A stretch of DNA of 64,000 bases from positions 230,017 through 294,016 of the forward strand of contig CBDHHL010000048.1 of the NCBI GenBank assembly GCA_965263355.1. The letters run 5' to 3'. How positions within the stretch are numbered: the stretch's first letter is position 1; the number at the start of each line of letters is the position of its first letter. The translations under genes were made by a program, and so were the position numbers. Shown here piece by piece: positions 43,788-53,549 of this stretch. A model generated the notes under the pieces. It was given only the letters and a program-made list of their open reading frames with translations, did no database searches and was not told the origin of the DNA. The DNA is from Leptolyngbyaceae cyanobacterium (GTDB lineage: Bacteria; Cyanobacteriota; Cyanobacteriia; Phormidesmidales; Phormidesmidaceae).

Positions 43788-43904
43788 AGGTTTGGGCTCA
43801 AAACTGCGAAGACTGTTTTACAGCTACAGGCATGCGCTAACAAATTAAACACTGCAACGTACTCTTCTCTCGAAAAAGGTTAAAAGAGCAAGAAGGGTAA
43901 AGGG

Positions 43905-44727
43905 CTACGGAAGAGAGCCTGGGGGCGCACTCACAACTCGAAAACCGATAATGAGGTAGCGGTCGCCGGGCAGATTGTAGTTGCGACGGGCGGAGCGGCA
44001 ATCCTCTGGATAGTCTGGCCCAGGAGCCGCCGCGCAGGATGCGTCTAGAGTCATTACCATCAGTCATCCAAGCACTGCCATCTGTGGGTGCATTGTTGTA
44101 ATTCTCATGCCAGATATCTTGACACCATTCCAAAACATTTCCATGCATGTCACATAGCCCAAAATCATTGGCAATATCAAAATAATCGACATGGGTGGTT
44201 TCTTTTATATAGTCACCTTCAGGACCATCACCATAGGCAACCGTTCCACGATAATTGGCCACATAAGTCGTCAGGGTTTTGCCAAAATGAAAGGGGGTTG
44301 TTGTTCTAGCTCGACAGGCATATTCCCACTCCGCTTCGCTGGGTAATCGATAGGGACGGCCTGTATGGACTGATAGCCGTTTACAGAACTCCACAGCGTC
44401 ATACCAGGTTACTTGCTCCACAGGTCGATCAGCGCCTTTGTATTCAGAGGGGTCTGTCTCTAACTCGCGATCTACCGCTGGCATCGCCGCCACGGCTCGC
44501 CATTGAGCCTGGGTAACCGGATAGCGTCCCATAAAAAACTGAGGCACCGTCACGTCATGCAGGGGGCCTTCAGACTTCTGTCGTTTCAGCTCATCCTCTG
44601 GGGAGCCCATGGTAAATGTGCCGCCAGGAATTAACAGCATCTGCAGTGGGATGGCATCCCCCAGGGCCTCTAAGGGCTCGGTATAGTACTGAGTCGTAGC
44701 GGTCGTCCGCCGAAGAGTAAACGCCAT
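43905..44727 (-). CDS. DGR target 1: stand-alone FGE-sulfatase/C-type-lectin-fold protein (+1 frameshift inside its VR as sequenced)
   Basis: IPGGTFTMGSP, YPVTQAQW, RLPSEAEWEYACRA, DMHGNV.EWC and RGGSW motifs. Removing one base at ~44016 restores ...[14 protein letters not shown] with the stop at 43905. Confidence 0.9.
43919..44033 (-). repeat. DGR variable repeat VR1
   Basis: 115 nt against the 114-nt TR: 10-11 substitutions at TR adenines (depending on gap placement), two T>C changes and one insertion. Confidence 0.93.
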
Positions 44728-44850: not shown

Positions 44851-45033
44851 GGGCCAGCTAAGTCGTCGGTTTCCCTACCAAAGTAGCTGGCCCAGGGTTA
44901 TTTTTGGATACCTCGACGGGTATCGCCGGAATAGGCTCTGGACTCTTCTGAGGCACACCCGACAGATTCCCATCTGCCAGTTCTGACCAGCCAGGTACCC
45001 AGCCATAGGCAAGGCACCAGCAATAGAAGAGTG
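44851..45033 (-). ncRNA. Structured 3' spacer of the DGR template RNA
   Basis: Directly 3' of TR on the minus strand; stems CAGAT/ATCTG, GATACC/GGTATC and a 10-bp GGGCCAGCTA/TAGCTGGCCC (44851-44860 with 44884-44893). Confidence 0.6.
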
Positions 45034-45147
45034 CTGGGGGCGCACTCACAACTCGAAAACCGATATTGTTGTTGCGGTTGCCGGGCTGATTGTTGTTGCG
45101 ACAGGCGGAGCGGCAATTCTCTGGATTGTTGATCCAGGAGCCGCCGC
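45034..45147 (-). repeat. DGR template repeat (TR)
   Basis: Reads [37 protein letters not shown] with ten AAY codons; not part of a CLec gene; lies next to avd. Confidence 0.96.
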
Positions 45148-45257: not shown

Positions 45258-45647
45258 ATGGCTGTTGAGCTGCCCATCCTGCAAAAAACCTATGACTTAA
45301 TTAAGTGGTACGTCCCTTTACTCAACAAACTACCCCGTGATCAACGGTTTCTATTGGGAAACCGCATCATCACCGGCCTCTACGAACTACTAGAAGGCCT
45401 GATCGTAGCCCGCTATCAGCGCGATAAACTCCCCCAACTACGACAACTCAACAGCAAGCTAGAAATCCTACGCTATCAAACCCGACTGCTGTTAGATTTT
45501 GACCTACTTTCCCACCGCCGCTACCAATACGTCAGCCAACTCATCAATGCCATTGGTACAGACCTTGGTGGCTGGATACGCCAGCAAGAGCAGAAACCAA
45601 AGGTCAGAAATCAGCCCCCAGAAACCACAGCCATTACTAACCGCTGA
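45258..45647 (+). CDS. avd: DGR accessory variability determinant (four-helix bundle)
   Basis: [11 protein letters not shown]...[13 protein letters not shown]...[10 protein letters not shown]; basic 129-aa protein ending 2 nt before the RT. Confidence 0.92.
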
Positions 45648-45649
45648 CT

Positions 45650-46711
45650 ATGCAACGCCATGGGAACCTTTGGCCCCAGGTCATCGACTTTGAGAACCTA
45701 TTGCTGGCCTCACGGCTTGCCCAGAAAGGCAAACGCTTTCGGCCCAATGTCCTCGCCTTTAATGACCGGCTAGGGGCAGAGCTTTTACAGCTCCAGACCG
45801 AACTCACCCACTTTACCTATCGCCCCGGCAACTACCGCACCTTTAGAATCCGCGATCCAAAACCACGCATGATTTCGGCAGCACCCTATCGAGATCGGGT
45901 GGTTCACCATGCCCTATGCAATGTGATCGTGCCATTGCTAGACCGCACGTTAATTAACCACACCTATGCCAATCGTCTGGGCTATGGCACCCATCGGGCA
46001 CTCACCCAGTTTACTGACTGGGCACGGTGTTATCCCTACTGCCTGCAATGCGATATCCAAACCTACTTTCCATCAATCGATCATGAAATCCTCAAGTCCA
46101 TCATCCGGCAACGGCTCAAGTGCCCAGACACCCTATGGCTCATTGACACCATCATCGATGCCAGTAACGACCAGTTCCCCGTTCTCGAATACTTTCCAGG
46201 GGATAACCTGCTCACGCCCGTAGAGCGACGACGAGGGCTGCCCATCGGCAACCTCACCAGCCAGTTCTTTGCCAATTTGTACCTCAGCCCCTTCGACCAC
46301 TTCGTTAAACGCCAGCTCAAGCTCAAACACTACCTGCGCTATGTGGACGACTTTGCCGCCTTCTCAGATGACCAGCAGGAACTGGCCGATGCTCGATTGG
46401 CCATGGAAGATTATCTGGCTACCCTGCGGCTAAAAATGCACCCCATAAAAAGCCAGCTATTTGAACCTCGATATGGGGCCAACTTTGTCGGTTTTCGCAT
46501 TCTGCCTGATCGCATCCGTGTCCGTAATGATAATGTGCGCCGAGCCCGGCGACGGCTCAAGTACTTGCAACGTCGTTATGCCGCTGGAGCAATTGAGCTA
46601 GAGCCGCTGGTCCAGCGCCTGCAGAGCTGGGAAGCCCACCTGAAGCATGGCAATACCTATCGCCTGCGGCAAAAGGTATTTGAACGCCATACGTTTATTA
46701 GACACGAATAA
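45650..46711 (+). CDS. DGR reverse transcriptase
   Basis: [33 protein letters not shown]-type [10 protein letters not shown] and catalytic YVDD; 353 aa with no maturase or endonuclease extension. Confidence 0.96.
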
Positions 46712-46768: not shown

Positions 46769-46781
46769 AAAGGGTAAAGGG

Positions 46782-47633
46782 TTACACAAGAGAGCCTGGG
46801 GGCGCACTCACAACTCGAAAACCGATATAGTTGTCGCGGTGGCCGGGCGGATGGTTGAAGCGACAGGCGGAGCGGCAAAACTCAGGAAAGTTGATCCAGG
46901 AGCCGCCGCGCAGGATGCGGATATTCGTCATTACCGTCAGTCATCCAGGCACTTCCATCTGTAGGCGCATTTCTTATAAGTTGTCATGCGAAATATCCTG
47001 GCACCATTCCCATACATTGCCATGCATGTCGCATAGGCCAAAGGCATTAGCTACATCAAAGTGATCAACTACAGTAGTTTCTTCTCGATATTCGCCTTTG
47101 GGGCCAGAACCATAGGAACCTGACCAGTTGTATTCTTCGCTGTCAGTGCCTCGGTAATTTGCTAAATCCGTCGTAATCGTTTCGCCAAAATGAAAGGGTG
47201 TTTTTGTACCTGCCCGACAAGCATATTCCCACTCGGCTTCGGTAGGGAGCCGGTAAGGACGGCCTGTATGGGCTGAGAGCCTTGCACAGAACTCCACAGC
47301 ATCGTCCCAAGATACCTTCTCCACAGGCCGATTAGCCCCCTTGAAACTGGATGGATCAACATCTAATTCCCGTTCCACCGGGGACATCTCCGCCACAGCT
47401 CGCCACTGGGCCTGAGTCACCAGATACCGCGCCATAAAGAACTGAGACACCCTCACCTCGTGCTGAGGGCCTTCGTTAGACTCACGCTTTAACTCATTCT
47501 CTGGAGACCCCATTAAAAACGTCCCTGCCGGGATACTCATCATCTCCAGGGGGCTCACCCCTGAGGCAATAGACTCTTCGTAATACTGGTTTTGCCCCTG
47601 ACTTTTGTTGATGGTGACAGCTTGAGCCTGCAT
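46782..47633 (-). pseudogene. DGR target 2: stand-alone FGE-sulfatase/CLec protein, interrupted as sequenced by three single-base duplications
   Basis: The ORF stops at WCQDISHDNL*. Removing an extra T, A and C in 46920-46980 restores HDNYKNAPTDGSAWMTDGNDEYRILRGGSW...[14 protein letters not shown]. May be intact in vivo. Confidence 0.8.
46796..46909 (-). repeat. DGR variable repeat VR2
   Basis: 114 nt; 12 substitutions against TR, all at adenines, with no indel. Confidence 0.95.
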
Positions 47634-47669
47634 AGTTGCAAAGGGTAAGAGGGTAAGAAGGGTAAAGGG

Positions 47670-50379
47670 CTACGGAAGAGAGCCTGGGGGCGCACTCACA
47701 ACTCGAAAACCGATATAGTTGAAGCGGTAGCCGGGCCGATCGTAGTATGCGACAGGCGGAGCGGCAAAACTCTGGAAGGCTGATCCAGGAGCCGCCGCGT
47801 AGGACACGTCTAGAGTTATTACCATCAACCATCCAGGCACTGCCATCCGTGGGCGCACCCCTGTAATTGTCATGCCAAATATCCTGACACCATTCCCAAA
47901 CATTGCCATGCATATCTGATAAACCAAAGGCATTGGCAATCTTGAATTCCGTTACTGAAGTCGTTTGCTCGCGATATTTTCCCTTAGGACCATTGCCGTA
48001 GGTATAGCCGCCATTGTAATTAGCAACTTCAGTCGTTAGGGTTTCGCCAACGTGAAACGGCGTTTTTGTCCCTGCCCGACAGGCATATTCCCACTCCGCT
48101 TCGCTGGGCAAACGATACAGACGTCCAGTGTCATTCGATAACCGTTTGCAAAACTCCACAGCATCTTCCCAAGAAACATTCTCCACAGGCCGATCAGCCC
48201 CTTTAAAGCCGGATGGCTCAGCCTTTAGCTCACAGTCCACCTGGGGCATCGCCGCCACCACTCGCCACTGAGCCTGAGTCACCGGATAGCGCCCCATCAA
48301 AAAGCCAGCAACCGTCACTTCATGCTGTGGCCCTTCACTGTCGATTCGGCTAAGCTCATCCTCTGGAGACCCCATCAAAAAGCGACCACTGGGAATCGCC
48401 ACCATCTCCAGCGAGATATCTGCCCCCAACTCTTCCAGAAATCGATAAGCCTGACCACGGGTCTTGGTCACCACCCAGCGCTGCCGCCGTAAAAAGCCTG
48501 TACGTTTACGCTCTAACGTCGCCACCTGACACTCAAACAGCTCCAGACCATCCCCAGGCAAACTCACCGTCGCAATCTCAAAGGTAGCCGTCTTTAACGA
48601 TGGATACTCAACCGTCGGCTCAGCCTCTGAGTCTACAAGCGTCCCTTTGGTAAACTCCAGTACCTCCAACGGTGGATAGTCAACCTTATTATCTGGAGCT
48701 AAAGACTGCACAACGGTTTCCGTCTCCACAGCTGCCACCAACTCTGCATACTGCCCCCCCAACCGCCGCAGGGCCTGCTTCGTCACATTGGCAAATTCCA
48801 AAAACTCACTGCCTGCGGTCTTCAGCTCCTCCTTCAGCCGCAGCAGCGCCATAAAGCTATAGATCGACTTACCCAGCTTGCTGCCAATATAGGCTGACAC
48901 TTCGTTCAGCACCTCCTCTGCCGAGTCTGTCCTGACCGTATCCACCAGCAGTTCCCGCACACCCTCCACAAACCGATAATGCCGTTGCTGATCAAACAAA
49001 CTCCCCTGAGAAACTCCCTTGGATCTATCGACTTCCCCAGCCTCAGGCTTTACCCGCTCAATCAGCCCACTTAAAAACACCTCCGCCACATGCAACGGCG
49101 ACGACTCTGGCAACAGCTTGGCCTGAATGATATACACCAGTGACAGCTCCACCGGCACCAACGCCATTAACGACGCCAACTCTCGGGCCGTTTGCGATGC
49201 CGTTTGACTAAATTGATTTACCAGCTGCTCAGCATAGTCTGGCTCAGTCTGGGTAGCCACGGGGCCAGCAGCCACCAGCTCTGGATCATCTACCTCATCC
49301 TCCAGTTCATCCAACGGATACCAAATGCCCGCCGTTTGGGTATCACCAAACCCAGCCAACACCCTAGCCCACTGAGCCATGGACGACGGTTCTAACGTAA
49401 TGATCGGCAGCTTTAGCCCTGGGCCATACTCCCGATGAAACTCCTGAGGTAGTGGGTCCACTAGCTGGGCATTGGTCCCCCCTGGCCCCCGTGCCGAGAA
49501 TGTGGTTTGTAACCCAGCCTCTAGGGCTGTACGGGACCACATGCGCGACGGCAGCATCTGCAAAATCGCCACGGGGCCATGTTTTGCCCATGGGTCCAGA
49601 TAGTAAGTCTGCAATTTTCCCCGCTGCCATGCGGTCGAAATGCAATCGCTAACCACCACGATCAACCGTCGCCCAGATGCATCGATCAGCCCCTTTGGAT
49701 CGCGGGGGCGAGGCATGGCTTCTGGCATCGGACGCTTAGCATACAGCGCTGTGGCACCACCGGCAGAGGTTTGCAAATACCACACCGTCACGGTACGAAA
49801 CGCTCCCTGCCGTTCTAACACCTGCTGAAAGTCACGAATCGTATCGCGCCACAAAAAGCTAGAGGCAGAATCTTCGACCACCAGGGCCAGTTCTAACCAT
49901 CGTTCTCGGGCAGGCTGCACCATGGTCATACAAAACTGACGCTCAGCCGTCTGTTCCGCCGTCGCCTCTTCATCCAACTCCGTTTGGGTGTAGGAGTCCA
50001 CTCGCCGCATCAAGGGCCGTAGTGAACGCCCCAAGGCCAACGTTCTGCGTAGGGCCGGAGACGTTGGTGTGGCAAACGGGATGCCCTTGTTAGGGGCTTT
50101 AGTTTTCTGAGTCTGAGTCTGTTGGGTTGTTTGACTGTAGAGAGAAAACTCAGCAGCTGAAGGCGGCGGCGCTGGCGGCGTATTATCGATCTCAATTTCG
50201 ACAGTCTCGTCAGGCTCTGACCTTGAGTCTGGTTCCTGCCTTTCCCCTGCTTCCGGAGCGTCAATGTAGCTCGTCAACCACAATAAGTCAGCAATATTCT
50301 CCCCATCCCAATCGATACCCGCATTTTTCACACGGGCAATCACTGTCGCCAAATTAGAAGAGAAATCCTGCTGTACCAA
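47670..50379 (-). CDS. DGR target 3: vWA-like (SAV_2336-type) N-terminal domain plus C-terminal FGE-sulfatase/CLec domain (+1 frameshift in its VR as sequenced)
   Basis: LGRSLRPL, LDEEATAE, LELALVVEDSAS (degenerate MIDAS) and IVVVSDCIS..W; full CLec motifs. Removing one base at ~47748 restores [14 protein letters not shown] at 47670. Confidence 0.9.
47684..47798 (-). repeat. DGR variable repeat VR3
   Basis: 115 nt; 12 substitutions, all at TR adenines, plus one insertion (AAC to ATAC). Confidence 0.95.
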
Positions 50380-50383
50380 TGGC

Positions 50384-51388
50384 CTAAGCCCCCGGCCCTG
50401 ACAATGGCTTCAGAATTTTTTGCAGCAGGTCACTATCAGCGGATAGATCCGGTGTCCCCTCTTGAAGTAATAAATAAATGGCATTGAGCAGTTGATCTGT
50501 CGCCAACGACTCACGATCTCGCTTCTCCACAAAGGCTTTGATCACCGGCTCCGCCTTCGTCAGCACGTCACCGTCTAATTTCGCCAAATGCCGTTGCACA
50601 ATATCCGCCAGTTCAGCCTCTGTCGGCTCACCCATATCCAACCGAATACAGCGCCGCAAAAACGGTGGTGGAAAATCCCGCTCACCATTGCTGGTTAAAA
50701 TCACAAACGGAAACGCATTACACTGCACCTGCCCCTTTTCAATGGTGGCCGTTTCATCCTCTTCAGCATAGGAGGTCCCCACATCCACTGTAGGTAGTAC
50801 TTCCTTAATGCGCTCCAGCTCATCAATCCGAAAGCGCCCTTCCTCAAAGGTATGGAGCAAATCATTGGGCAAATCAATATCGCTCTTGTCAATTTCATCA
50901 ATCAGCAACACCCGAGGTTTTTGGCTCCCTTTAGGCACCGGCAACAGTGCCGTACCCAACGGCCCCAAACGAATATATTTACCAATGGCCTTTAGCGCAT
51001 CGGCCCGATCTTTGGGTAGCTTATTAGTCTGGTCAAACTGAGAGTCTTGCAAGCGACCAATGGCATCGTAACTGTATAGGCCCTGCTTTAGGGTAGTACG
51101 TGTCGTAATTGGCCAGTAAAGCACTTCCCCCAGCTTTAGCTCATGGGCCACCGCATAGGCCAGCGACGTTTTACCCGTCCCCGGCTTCCCCGTAATCAAC
51201 AATGGCCGCCGTAGATAGAGCGCCGCATTAACCAGCTCTATCTGAGCCTCATGGGCCTTAAACGTGGTCCCCTTTTGCTCCTGATACTGATTTACATCCT
51301 GAAACGCTCGCCACCCTGGTGGAGGCGGCAAACGCTCTAGATCATCGTGGGGCTCTCCAGTCCCCTGATAGATTTTCCAAGAAGTCAT
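50384..51388 (-). CDS. MoxR-family AAA+ ATPase
   Basis: LPPPPGWR, AALYLRRPLL, Walker A GKPGTGKT, Walker B LLIDEIDK, TSNGER and FLRRC. Confidence 0.93.
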   Translation of the reverse strand: MTSWKIYQGTGEPHDDLERLPPPPGWRAFQDVNQYQEQKGTTFKAHEAQIELVNAALYLRRPLLITGKPGTGKTSLAYAVAHELKLGEVLYWPITTRTTLKQGLYSYDAIGRLQDSQFDQTNKLPKDRADALKAIGKYIRLGPLGTALLPVPKGSQKPRVLLIDEIDKSDIDLPNDLLHTFEEGRFRIDELERIKEVLPTVDVGTSYAEEDETATIEKGQVQCNAFPFVILTSNGERDFPPPFLRRCIRLDMGEPTEAELADIVQRHLAKLDGDVLTKAEPVIKAFVEKRDRESLATDQLLNAIYLLLQEGTPDLSADSDLLQKILKPLSGPGA

Positions 51389-53205
51389 AGTCTGGCAGCA
51401 GATAACTTAACATTTGGCGGCACTCGATTGGGATCATCCCACAAGATTGCTAAATGATGACCCAACTTTGGCGATTGAGCATATTCTGTCTCGGATTCTA
51501 AAGGAGGTGTATTACGCCGTATTTCTAACACTTTCTCAGGCACATCTTTTAGCGGATGAGAAAGTACCTGATTAAGCAGCTTTGGACTCCAGTCCTCTTC
51601 AGACTGGTTATTCCTCACCCAAACAGCTACAGGAATACCTTGCTTCGCCAGTAGTTGAGGATCGCTCTGGGAATTTAATGAACTTAACTTTTGAAACCCC
51701 ACAATCCCAGCATCTTTAAGGTTATCACTATCGGCAAACACCTTATGGGCGGACACCGTCGCTTTAGCGGACTTTAATTTCCATGTCTTTTTCCATCGAG
51801 CATTGGCCTTGAAACCACCCAGGTTAGAACGCTTTTGCAATGCCAAAATCACCCGCTGACAATCGTCACTGCCAATGCCTAATGGTTCATCTTCTAGCAT
51901 TAATCGCTCCCAAGGTTCATTGAGTAGTGAAGTTGGCAACACAAAGTACACAGTTAATTCACCCGGATCACACTCATCGTCTAACCCTCCACATAGTTGC
52001 ATTAGATAGCTTTCCAGCAAAATCGGTAAGTCACCATAAGCAACCTGATGCTCTGAAAGATGACCATAATTGTCATCTTCCGGAGAAAACAGGAGCCGAC
52101 GACTACCCTGCAAGGTCTGAGTGCTATATTTTTCAGGATCTAAAACAGCCCATGCTTCAACCGATAGGCTTTCTCGACTCGCATCCTCTTGAATATTGAC
52201 CAACAGCATCGGATCACGGGGTTCAACCTGTTGCTCTTGCCGCTTTGCTTTTTGTGCCTGCATCGCCGCTTTGGCAGATTCCAAGTCCTTCGCATATCGA
52301 CTGCCCCATTGATACAACCGCTCTCTTGGCTCTGCTAGTTGCTCTATCTGTTGGGCCTCTAGCTCTAGCACCAGGGCCGCTACAAATTGGACTAACTTAT
52401 CTTCTTCCTGATCAGCACCCGCCGTTGCATTCGCTAGCTCATCGATAATCTTGTGGGTTTCTCGCTGAACCGGAGTCACAGCATTTTGAGACCGACACAG
52501 ACCATAAGCCCGCTGAATAAAATTTAGAATATTTACCTCAGCAGCATCCAAGATATCCGTAAGAGTCTTACGCCGCAAGTAGTTCAGAGGCTCACGGAGT
52601 ACATCCTTAGGCATCATGTAAGCCAAGGTTACAGACTGCTGCTTATCCTTTTCAGCTGCAACTGTCATCCCCACGACAGCATTTAACTGTTCATCCCAGA
52701 TAGGTGAACCACTAAAACCCTGTTCCAGTGAACGATCTTGGCCCATTTTTGCATCTAACTGAACCCATCGTTTCCCAGTTTCACCCCGCAAGGTAGCCGT
52801 TGCCCAAACTCCGTCAGTATGACCTTTAGGAAAACCAAACACTCTTAGGGGATGTCCCCAAGCATCTGACGATGAAACTATTCCAACAGGCTCAGCATTA
52901 GCAGGTGCCGATGCCAATAACTTGAGCACAGCCATATCTTCTGAAAAGGCTGTCTTTGAAACTGGCAACCAGAAAACAACGGATGCCTCTACTTTTTGTC
53001 CTGGTGCTAGCAACGGCAAATCAAGCTGTACCGACTGATCAGGTATGGCCTCTGTATTCTCAGACAACGACAAAGCTGCCGCCACCACATGGGCACAAGT
53101 GAGCACATAACTCTCAGCTACCAAAAAGCCAGCACCGACGACATTGCCATTAGCGTGATACAACCTAACAACGGAAGACTTTAGCGGTTCTAAACGATCG
53201 GACAT
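51385..53205 (-). CDS. Trypsin-like protease fused to a vWA-MoxR-associated (VMAP-type) C-terminal domain
   Basis: Intact triad TCAHV / EDMAVL / GFSGSP; C-terminal FVLPTSLLNEPWE, GIPVAVWVR and LAILWDDPNRVPP; its stop overlaps the MoxR start (ATGA). Confidence 0.85.
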   Translation of the reverse strand: MSDRLEPLKSSVVRLYHANGNVVGAGFLVAESYVLTCAHVVAAALSLSENTEAIPDQSVQLDLPLLAPGQKVEASVVFWLPVSKTAFSEDMAVLKLLASAPANAEPVGIVSSSDAWGHPLRVFGFPKGHTDGVWATATLRGETGKRWVQLDAKMGQDRSLEQGFSGSPIWDEQLNAVVGMTVAAEKDKQQSVTLAYMMPKDVLREPLNYLRRKTLTDILDAAEVNILNFIQRAYGLCRSQNAVTPVQRETHKIIDELANATAGADQEEDKLVQFVAALVLELEAQQIEQLAEPRERLYQWGSRYAKDLESAKAAMQAQKAKRQEQQVEPRDPMLLVNIQEDASRESLSVEAWAVLDPEKYSTQTLQGSRRLLFSPEDDNYGHLSEHQVAYGDLPILLESYLMQLCGGLDDECDPGELTVYFVLPTSLLNEPWERLMLEDEPLGIGSDDCQRVILALQKRSNLGGFKANARWKKTWKLKSAKATVSAHKVFADSDNLKDAGIVGFQKLSSLNSQSDPQLLAKQGIPVAVWVRNNQSEEDWSPKLLNQVLSHPLKDVPEKVLEIRRNTPPLESETEYAQSPKLGHHLAILWDDPNRVPPNVKLSAARL

Positions 53206-53213
53206 CAGTCAGC

Positions 53214-53549
53214 CTACGACTGCCCTCCCCACTTAAGCGTCACCTCAAAAGTGACCTCACTACCCACGGAGCTAAATACTACACCCGCTTCTGCGCTTAA
53301 CTTCAAGCCAAAGGTAACCTCGACTTCATCAGCAGGCGTCGTTAAACCATCCTTCAACTTTGAAACCACCGTTGACGCAACAGGCTTAATCGCATCCAGG
53401 GCCTCATTTAAGTTTTTCTTGGCCTTATAGACCATTTCGGTCGTTTCGGTCAATGCTACGCGCTCAATAGCATTGGAGTTAGGCTCATCAATCTCAACGA
53501 GAAAAGGGGTCCCGTCTTCTAACGTGAACTGAGCTAAAGCTTTATCCAT
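53214..53549 (-). CDS. Trypsin co-occurring (Trypco1 / CU044_2847-like) protein
   Basis: FTLEDGTPFLVE, DEVEVTFGLKLSAEAGVV and FEVTLKW motifs; GAGGAG RBS; directly upstream of the trypsin gene. Confidence 0.82.
   Translation of the reverse strand: MDKALAQFTLEDGTPFLVEIDEPNSNAIERVALTETTEMVYKAKKNLNEALDAIKPVASTVVSKLKDGLTTPADEVEVTFGLKLSAEAGVVFSSVGSEVTFEVTLKWGGQS

Follow-up and report, generated by a model that had tools for sequence, protein, structure and literature searches.

The window analysed here (a stretch of 64,000 nucleotides (nt), positions 230,017 to 294,016 of contig CBDHHL010000048.1 in the GenBank assembly GCA_965263355.1 of a Leptolyngbyaceae cyanobacterium) carries a diversity-generating retroelement (DGR) with three target genes. 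The large target consists of a SAV_2336/von Willebrand factor A (vWA)-type N-terminal domain, a linker, and a C-terminal head of the FGE (formylglycine-generating enzyme)/C-type lectin (CLec) fold, and the two stand-alone (SA) targets, SA1 and SA2, comprise a CLec head only (Table 1). Complex modelling and sequence comparison indicate that the two free heads are probably tethered to the large protein by donor-strand complementation, each of them being completed by a spare beta-strand of the linker. From the comparison of related loci, the same arrangement appears to extend to sensors of one to four heads, with strands that are specific to their class.

The motif stretch is located between the SAV_2336 N-terminal domain and the FGE-sulfatase domain of the large target. 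The minus strand over positions 48514-48678 encodes 55 residues (the plus strand is closed by stops) with the three strand-like motifs LEVLEFTKGTL, LKTATFEIATV and LELFECQVATL, which a preliminary description of this DNA had read as three copies of one motif. The third was said there to lead into the CLec core, and it is indeed the first strand of that domain. Motif 3 corresponds to the usual first strand ahead of the FGE domains in many cyanobacterial multidomain proteins, where one copy is found per FGE domain, and both spare copies of strand 1 are preceded by a turn of the YPxL/FPPL type. All three motifs are conserved across 10 aligned orthologues of ~900 residues (55-84% overall identity).

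A profile of the cis strand, built from motif 3 alone (24 non-redundant relatives), gives 25.5 bits for motif 3 and 13.8 bits for motif 2, while 18,758 control windows taken from N-terminal domains reach a maximum of 6.1 bits, with the 99.9th percentile at 2.3. In an iterated profile, derived from the linkers of 90 relatives with no information on the SA genes, motifs 1-3 score 21.7, 22.6, and 23.5 bits (control maximum 7.6 bits). The cis-strand-only profile misses divergent strand classes (motif 1 of the close relatives L001-L003 falls under the cut-off) and was kept as a conservative count. An apparent extra motif corresponded to a helix of the N-terminal domain and was excluded by setting the linker boundary behind the LGGxY-type helix. 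In some relatives, inserts of 85 to more than 250 residues, which by eye resemble helix-turn-helix, repeat or larger domains, are present between the cis strand and beta2, or between the donor strands (L033, L038, L040, L051, L060, L067; L115, L120, L122).

Both stand-alone proteins start exactly at beta2, the second strand of the hairpin, and lack the strand-1 motif, in agreement with the preliminary description. There is no room for the motif upstream, because the start of SA1 is 36 nt past the large gene's true stop, and a stop precedes the Met of SA2 by five codons. Of the 97 stand-alone heads listed for the 73 loci of the count set, not one has a strand-1 motif at the N-terminus; one head, of L040, was flagged by the strand-1 scan, but the flagged stretch precedes the start codon. 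The N-termini of the SA proteins and the linker strands are both conserved in the orthologues. Folding of the free heads to completion had been named as an objection to docking. Modelled alone with AlphaFold2 (AF2), SA1 has a mean predicted local distance difference test score (pLDDT) of 86.5, with residues 1-13 below 50 and no strand before residue 17, and it is thus an acceptor short of one strand, as in donor-strand complementation. The segment that is unstructured in the lone SA1 forms a 21-residue strand in cis in the AF2 model of the large target.

The linker and head of the L003 orthologue were modelled with AF2 (mean pLDDT 70.4; only one of the five models exceeded 58). The model shows the cis strand at residues 58-72, a long beta2 at residues 77-97, and then the FGE fold. 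Its fold matches include PvdO (5hha_B; Z 22.1, root mean square deviation 3.0, 241 aligned residues, from model residue 56) and TvpA (2y3c; Z 21.0, root mean square deviation 2.7, 226 aligned residues, from residue 88), and TaqVP (5vf4) and Mtd (1yu0) are also in the list. As PvdO aligns from residue 56, the hairpin has cis counterparts in solved relatives. For PvdO (5hha) and the T. curvata FGE (6s07) motif 3 and beta2 align, with ranges starting at model residues 54-56 and Z values of 18-22. In these proteins the hairpin is complete within one chain, whereas the small proteins described here encode only its second strand.

An AlphaFold-type complex of the linker with each stand-alone target had been proposed in the preliminary description, and docking was predicted for a complex with both. 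The job combined the intact linker and head of L003 (354 residues, the scored partner) with SA1 (284 residues) and SA2 (273 residues), using a 27-row alignment for each. The interaction prediction score from aligned errors (ipSAE) of the three-protein complex was 0.62, 0.62, and 0.63 in three runs. Replacement of the partner gave 0.00 in two controls, and replacement of SA1 gave 0.02 in the third (best of three, 0.02). The ipSAE mark is reached by 116 of 157 solved complexes and by 2 of 215 mismatched pairs, numbers that apply only approximately to this job of three chains and custom alignments. At least 71% of the contacts are common to the runs, and the pLDDT of the partner is at least 82. 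The confident interface comprises residues 18, 20-37, and 42-60 of chain 1, which contact residues 4-20 of SA1 and 1-18 of SA2, plus matching patches on both domains. In the best pairs, residues 9-14 of SA2 lie on residues 23-27 of chain 1 (motif 1), and residues 11-18 of SA1 on residues 47-53 (motif 2). The cis strand stays outside the trans interface. With regard to the control in which SA1 was replaced, either the docking of SA2 depends on SA1 or the model is fragile.

The assembly suggested by these models can be described as follows. Each FGE-type CLec head of this family would need an N-terminal beta-hairpin, made of strand 1 and beta2, packed against the domain. The large target supplies its own strand 1 (motif 3), and the linker upstream holds two spare copies. 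The small heads, starting at beta2 without a strand 1, would each take one linker strand with the unpaired beta2 and the adjoining groove of the domain: SA2 (class R) would take motif 1 (class B), and SA1 (class Q) would take motif 2 (class C). The product would be one signalling scaffold with three heads, varying independently and all rewritten from the same template repeat (TR), which may provide widened or multivalent sensing by a single MoxR-VMAP-trypsin module. Observed directly are the anatomy and its conservation, the adenine-specific variation of the VRs (variable repeats), the co-variation of numbers and classes between loci, and the preference of the model; from these we infer that the proteins bind each other in the cell, in what stoichiometry, and what this means for sensing.

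For the comparison across loci, matches to the N-terminal domain model NF041121 were found in 61 of 401 sampled cyanobacterial genomes (31 above the cut-off) and, within the order to which the close relatives belong, in 62 of 172 genomes. The analysis covered 96 fetched places. There are 90 loci with an FGE domain in the large open reading frame (ORF), and the 73 of these that have a single such domain in the ORF and no less than 4 kb of downstream sequence form the count set. Upstream extensions were obtained for 57 of the 73 loci (4 kb upstream alone had missed a third SA gene in 10 loci); the other 16 either had 10 kb upstream already (the window, L001, L002, L004, L005) or had little or no contig left. 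A metagenome scan gave 15 loci, mostly too short for use. The number of small genes per locus ranges from 0 to 3 and that of strands from one to four. The earlier expectation that the number of motifs tracks the number of short targets is borne out: the SA gene number equals the motif number minus one in 53 of the 73 loci at a strict cut-off, set above every control window, and in 59 at a 1-bit cut-off (0.053 control hits per 120 residues). The Spearman coefficient between the two counts is 0.85-0.89 with the loci treated without correction for kinship, and since the loci are kin, the raw p values overstate the case. Contrasts corrected for lineage were therefore drawn on a tree of the N-terminal domains, and they are weighed below. 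Three loci (L049, L073, L085) carry an SA duplication of their own (sister clades, 96% support) together with three strong strands, so the state with three strands and two SA genes arose at least twice.

Two kinds of variant large protein were observed in the comparison. Chains that hold between two and four FGE domains, with a separate cis strand for every domain (P0002, P0005-P0008, P0012, L058), are the covalent counterpart of the proposed non-covalent assembly. In L061 (G042:C1) and L011 a frameshift or fission separates the N-terminal domain of the large target from its FGE head, and the head piece keeps the cis strand.

Strand classes and head classes were defined separately. The SA classes are clades in a tree of the SA domain cores: R (27 rows, including SA2), Q (30 rows, including SA1), and H; an assignment by regular expressions was rejected, as several Q-type proteins fell in R. 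The strand classes A, B, and C were seeded by order alone in five four-strand loci. In the 34 loci whose small genes all belong to H, Q or R, strand A and head H occur together in 13 loci, the strand only in 1, the head only in 0, and neither in 19 (Fisher p 2.4e-8). The corresponding numbers are 30, 1, 0, and 3 for C with Q (p 6.7e-4), and 25, 3, 2, and 3 for B with R (p 0.031), while the six mismatched pairings give p values from 0.09 to 1. The class H gene is a small CLec gene that 13 relatives (L096-L100, L106, L108, L111, L112, L116-L118, L120) carry ~4-5 kb upstream of their large target, and in all 13 the linker begins with a strand of class A; neither the class H gene nor strand A is present in the window. 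The window has strands B and C with heads R and Q, and the complex model reached the pairing of B with R and of C with Q independently. Natural variants also fit: A and C are found with H and Q in L100, C with Q in L053, and B with R in L090 and L114. The claim that each spare strand docks one free CLec module thus gains support from the complex model, the locus counts, and the class pairing. It is quite possible, as a more tentative proposal, that the linker acts as a rack which presents, ahead of the cis strand, at most three donor strands of different classes (A, B, C), each addressing its own DGR-diversified head family (H, R, Q), so that sensors with one to four heads would be assembled non-covalently and the number of heads would change in evolution as one strand and one small gene are gained or lost together.

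The reading frames of the targets require a comment. The preliminary description quoted the starts of the stand-alone targets as they are found here, and its view of the genes has to be corrected in that all three are interrupted by single-base indels in the window, the neighbouring genes being intact. The large target appears as an ORF of 961 residues (47494-50379) with its true stop at 47670, and its frame is broken by one extra base within the variable repeat (VR), near 47747; the orthologues have 896-910 residues. The frame of SA1 is broken twice, near 46919 and 46975-46978, just upstream of the VR, and SA2 has one extra base at 44016, in the VR. The same three genes are intact in the orthologous loci L001-L003. 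In the public sequencing runs, one contig of run X1 is without the extra base at 44016 and one contig of run X2 is without bases 46919, 46975, and 46978; no public-run contig was found across the VR of the large target, where the depth in that bin is 0.7-1.7. The three frameshifts are probably assembly errors in hypervariable, paralogous DNA.

Several observations weigh against tethering of the free heads. In the cis-strand profile motif 1 is marginal, with 3.7 bits, which exceeds the 99.9th percentile of 2.3 yet lies within the control range. The count rule is broken by 14 to 20 of the 73 loci, and the class pairing has misfits: L109 combines strand C with head R, L087 strand A with head R, and L098 strands A, B, and C with only H and Q. 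The lineage-corrected contrast of at least three motifs versus at least two SA genes is underpowered, giving for 6 independent pairs 4.2 in the same direction, 0.0 in the opposite direction, and 1.8 with no difference (median p 0.125), and with the cis-strand-only profile the values are 2.8, 1.0, and 3.2 (p ~0.6). The class pairs have only 2-4 independent contrasts (p 0.25-1). In the complex model, the score fell to 0.02 with SA1 replaced despite SA2 and motif 1 still being present, so the docking of SA2 is not supported on its own. The high score may also reflect a model that completes a hairpin known in cis from solved relatives such as PvdO, and split domains tend to pass. In addition, all three targets are frame-broken in the window, and the support for tethering is all computed, coming from models and comparative genomics.

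The main rival explanation is that the extra motifs and the cis hairpin jointly form an intramolecular beta-sheet stalk, placed between the vWA-type domain and the CLec head, and that the small CLecs are independent soluble receptors or spare DGR targets, with the numbers co-varying by joint inheritance. We consider it unlikely, with a share of the evidence on its side. The AF2 monomer, with no partner chain, does place motifs 1 and 2 in strands (residues 17-22 and 42-50), which leaves room for the intramolecular sheet that the preliminary description had named as an objection. These strands have pLDDT values of only ~40-60, however, in the single model of five whose mean reached 70, and with pLDDT 38-60 over residues 1-50 the linker of the monomer is too uncertain to choose between cis and trans pairing. 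The complex model, in contrast, chose trans docking though the cis option was present in the same chain, and the N-terminus of SA1 is unstructured when modelled alone. The rival reading is favoured by the relatedness of the loci, which inflates the raw correlations, by independent contrasts that are few and not significant, and by the CLec-only paralogues that are common in cyanobacteria, also away from DGR loci, according to the available excerpts of Vallota-Eastman et al. 2020 (PMC7517822). Nevertheless, a matched loss of strand class and SA class, seen in several clades (L100, L053, L090, and L114), is not expected of a stalk, and for the matched class pairs no independent contrast runs in the opposite direction.

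Two further explanations compete with donor-strand tethering. The small heads could join the large protein mainly head-to-head, or the spare strands could be meant for a different binding partner, for example the VMAP protein, Trypco1 or another scaffold molecule. The DGR variable proteins TaqVP and Mtd are oligomers, and their presence in the fold list, as well as the score collapse with SA1 replaced, which hints at cooperativity between heads, would agree with head-to-head contacts. In the model of the linker and head with SA1 and SA2, the confident contacts join the SA N-termini and one domain patch to the linker strands, and the best-scored pairs are all strand-to-strand. This explanation is improbable. 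Finally, nothing functional may be present: the short genes could have arisen by duplication of the 3' part of the large gene and be in decay, and the repeated motifs could be neutral duplications in the linker. The broken frames of the window, double in SA1, would fit this; the genes are, however, intact in L001-L003 and in dozens of further loci, where the N-terminal classes are conserved, the extra bases of SA1 and SA2 are absent from the public-run contigs, and nearly all differences between the VRs and the TR are at adenines. Decay is thus very improbable.

At this locus a DGR is joined to a ternary conflict system of the vWA-MoxR-VMAP(trypsin) type. The MoxR-type ATPase, the vWA-type protein, and the VMAP protein are encoded in one operon, and the minus strand carries the genes for Trypco1, the trypsin-VMAP protein, the MoxR-type ATPase, the large target, and SA1, then the TR and SA2. 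The avd and reverse transcriptase (RT) genes are on the plus strand, between SA1 and the TR. The N-terminal domain of the large target matches NF041121 (SAV_2336_NTERM) over residues 26-504, with 414.6 bits for a cut-off of 200, and none of the Pfam vWA models matched the large target at E <= 0.01; the name vWA follows Kaur et al. 2020 and Dore et al. 2024. PF03781 (FGE-sulfatase) matches all three targets (E 1.1e-53, 5.2e-44, and 4.4e-50), in the large target over C-terminal residues 658-877. The TR and the three VRs are four copies of a 122-nt repeat with a conserved 3' block common to all of them. The presence of RT and Avd, the adenine-specific differences between the TR and the VRs, and the position of the VR at the C-terminal end of a CLec-fold domain are those of a DGR. 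The TR lies head-to-head with the avd-RT pair (45258-46711), 128 nt apart, and has the sense of the targets. With this arrangement, the TR RNA and avd-RT would need to be transcribed divergently. Some relatives, among them L004, L033, and L036, have the RT on the strand of the targets.

Table 1. Position of the DGR, its targets, the predicted strands, and the neighbouring genes in the window.
Feature	Position	Strand	Remarks
SA2, stand-alone target, class R	43905..44727	-	N-terminal beta2 at 44668-44727
VR of SA2	43893..44014	-	10 mismatches at 28 TR adenines, 2 at 74 other bases
TR	45008..45129	-	sense of targets, opposite to avd-RT
avd	45258-45647	+	bAvd PF22296, E 2e-20
DGR reverse transcriptase	45650-46711	+	RVT_1 PF00078, E 1.1e-17; adjoins avd
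SA1, stand-alone target, class Q	46782..47633	-	unpaired beta2 in first ~20 residues (47574-47633)
VR of SA1	46770..46891	-	12 mismatches at 28 TR adenines, 0 at 74 other bases
Large DGR target	47670..50379	-	SAV_2336/vWA-type N-terminal domain, linker, FGE/CLec domain
VR of large target	47658..47779	-	repeat family D2; 12 mismatches at 28 TR adenines, 0 at 74 other bases
beta2 of large target, second hairpin strand	48436..48480	-	SA1 and SA2 begin at equivalent segment
Cis strand (motif 3)	48511..48546	-	first strand of the large target's own hairpin; outside trans interface
Donor strand 2 (motif 2, class C)	48562..48597	-	predicted SA1 docking site; model interface chain-1 residues 42-60
Donor strand 1 (motif 1, class B)	48634..48669	-	predicted SA2 docking site; model interface chain-1 residues 20-37
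MoxR-type AAA ATPase	50384-51388	-	AAA_5, E 1.5e-8; bpMoxR match weak
Trypsin-VMAP protein	51385-53205	-	VMAP-C PF20028, E 5.8e-18; VMAP-M1; Trypsin_2
Trypco1	53214-53549	-	PF19493, E 1.2e-24

Chaperone-usher pili use donor-strand complementation or exchange. The excerpts available of a study of Bacteroides type V pili (bioRxiv 10.1101/2024.11.15.621889) describe DGR-variable tip adhesins, and according to its reference list these pili assemble by strand exchange. As far as these excerpts go, the likeness would be that a fold short of one beta-strand is completed from another chain, which tethers a ligand-binding head (DGR-variable in Bacteroides). The system proposed here would differ in that the donor strands stand in tandem on one scaffold, where the pili have a single one in every subunit, the donor classes appear to be matched to separate head families, and the product would be a closed complex of two to four heads and not a polymer. 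No signal peptide was seen by eye in these proteins (no prediction tool was applied), and neither a pilin fold, a chaperone/usher, nor a processing protease is among the Pfam hits of the eight ORFs scanned, no search having been aimed at them.

The link between DGRs and the ternary system, and an extension, all-beta in structure, at the N-terminus of these FGS domains, are reported in the available parts of Kaur et al. 2020 (PMC7159879), and those of Dore et al. 2024 (PMC10907252) present the reading of the targets as sensors, with multi-head targets formed by tandem CLec domains in one chain. The DGR-diversified vWA-CLec sensors of these two papers are alike in the cyanobacterial lineage and in a variable head read as sensor or effector; they differ in that neither paper, in the text available, tells of CLec-only targets docking on a vWA protein or of spare linker strands (the words "strand" and "standalone" have 0 occurrences each in that of PMC10907252). 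Single-domain CLec genes in or near cyanobacterial DGR loci, and several targets per TR, are reported in the excerpts of PMC7517822, where the CLec-only genes are separate paralogues and no assembly with a multidomain target is proposed. Full-text literature searches that paired DGRs with donor strand or strand complementation, as well as wider ones (supplements being outside their scope), returned no account of heads assembled in this way. What is already known is the DGR and the ternary system; the assembly mode is the part for which no description was found.

In multicellular cyanobacteria the targets of DGRs are regarded as antigen sensors that belong to conflict systems, and the many CLec-only targets have so far been without an assigned place. 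If the free heads are tethered as proposed, one MoxR-VMAP-protease module would read several independently diversified binding sites, and the CLec-only genes would be explained. The address code between strand and head would then offer a simple handle on ligand recognition by these sensors, and, if the linker is indeed a rack of class-specific strands, this would represent an addressable, modular construction of a hypervariable immune receptor in bacteria.

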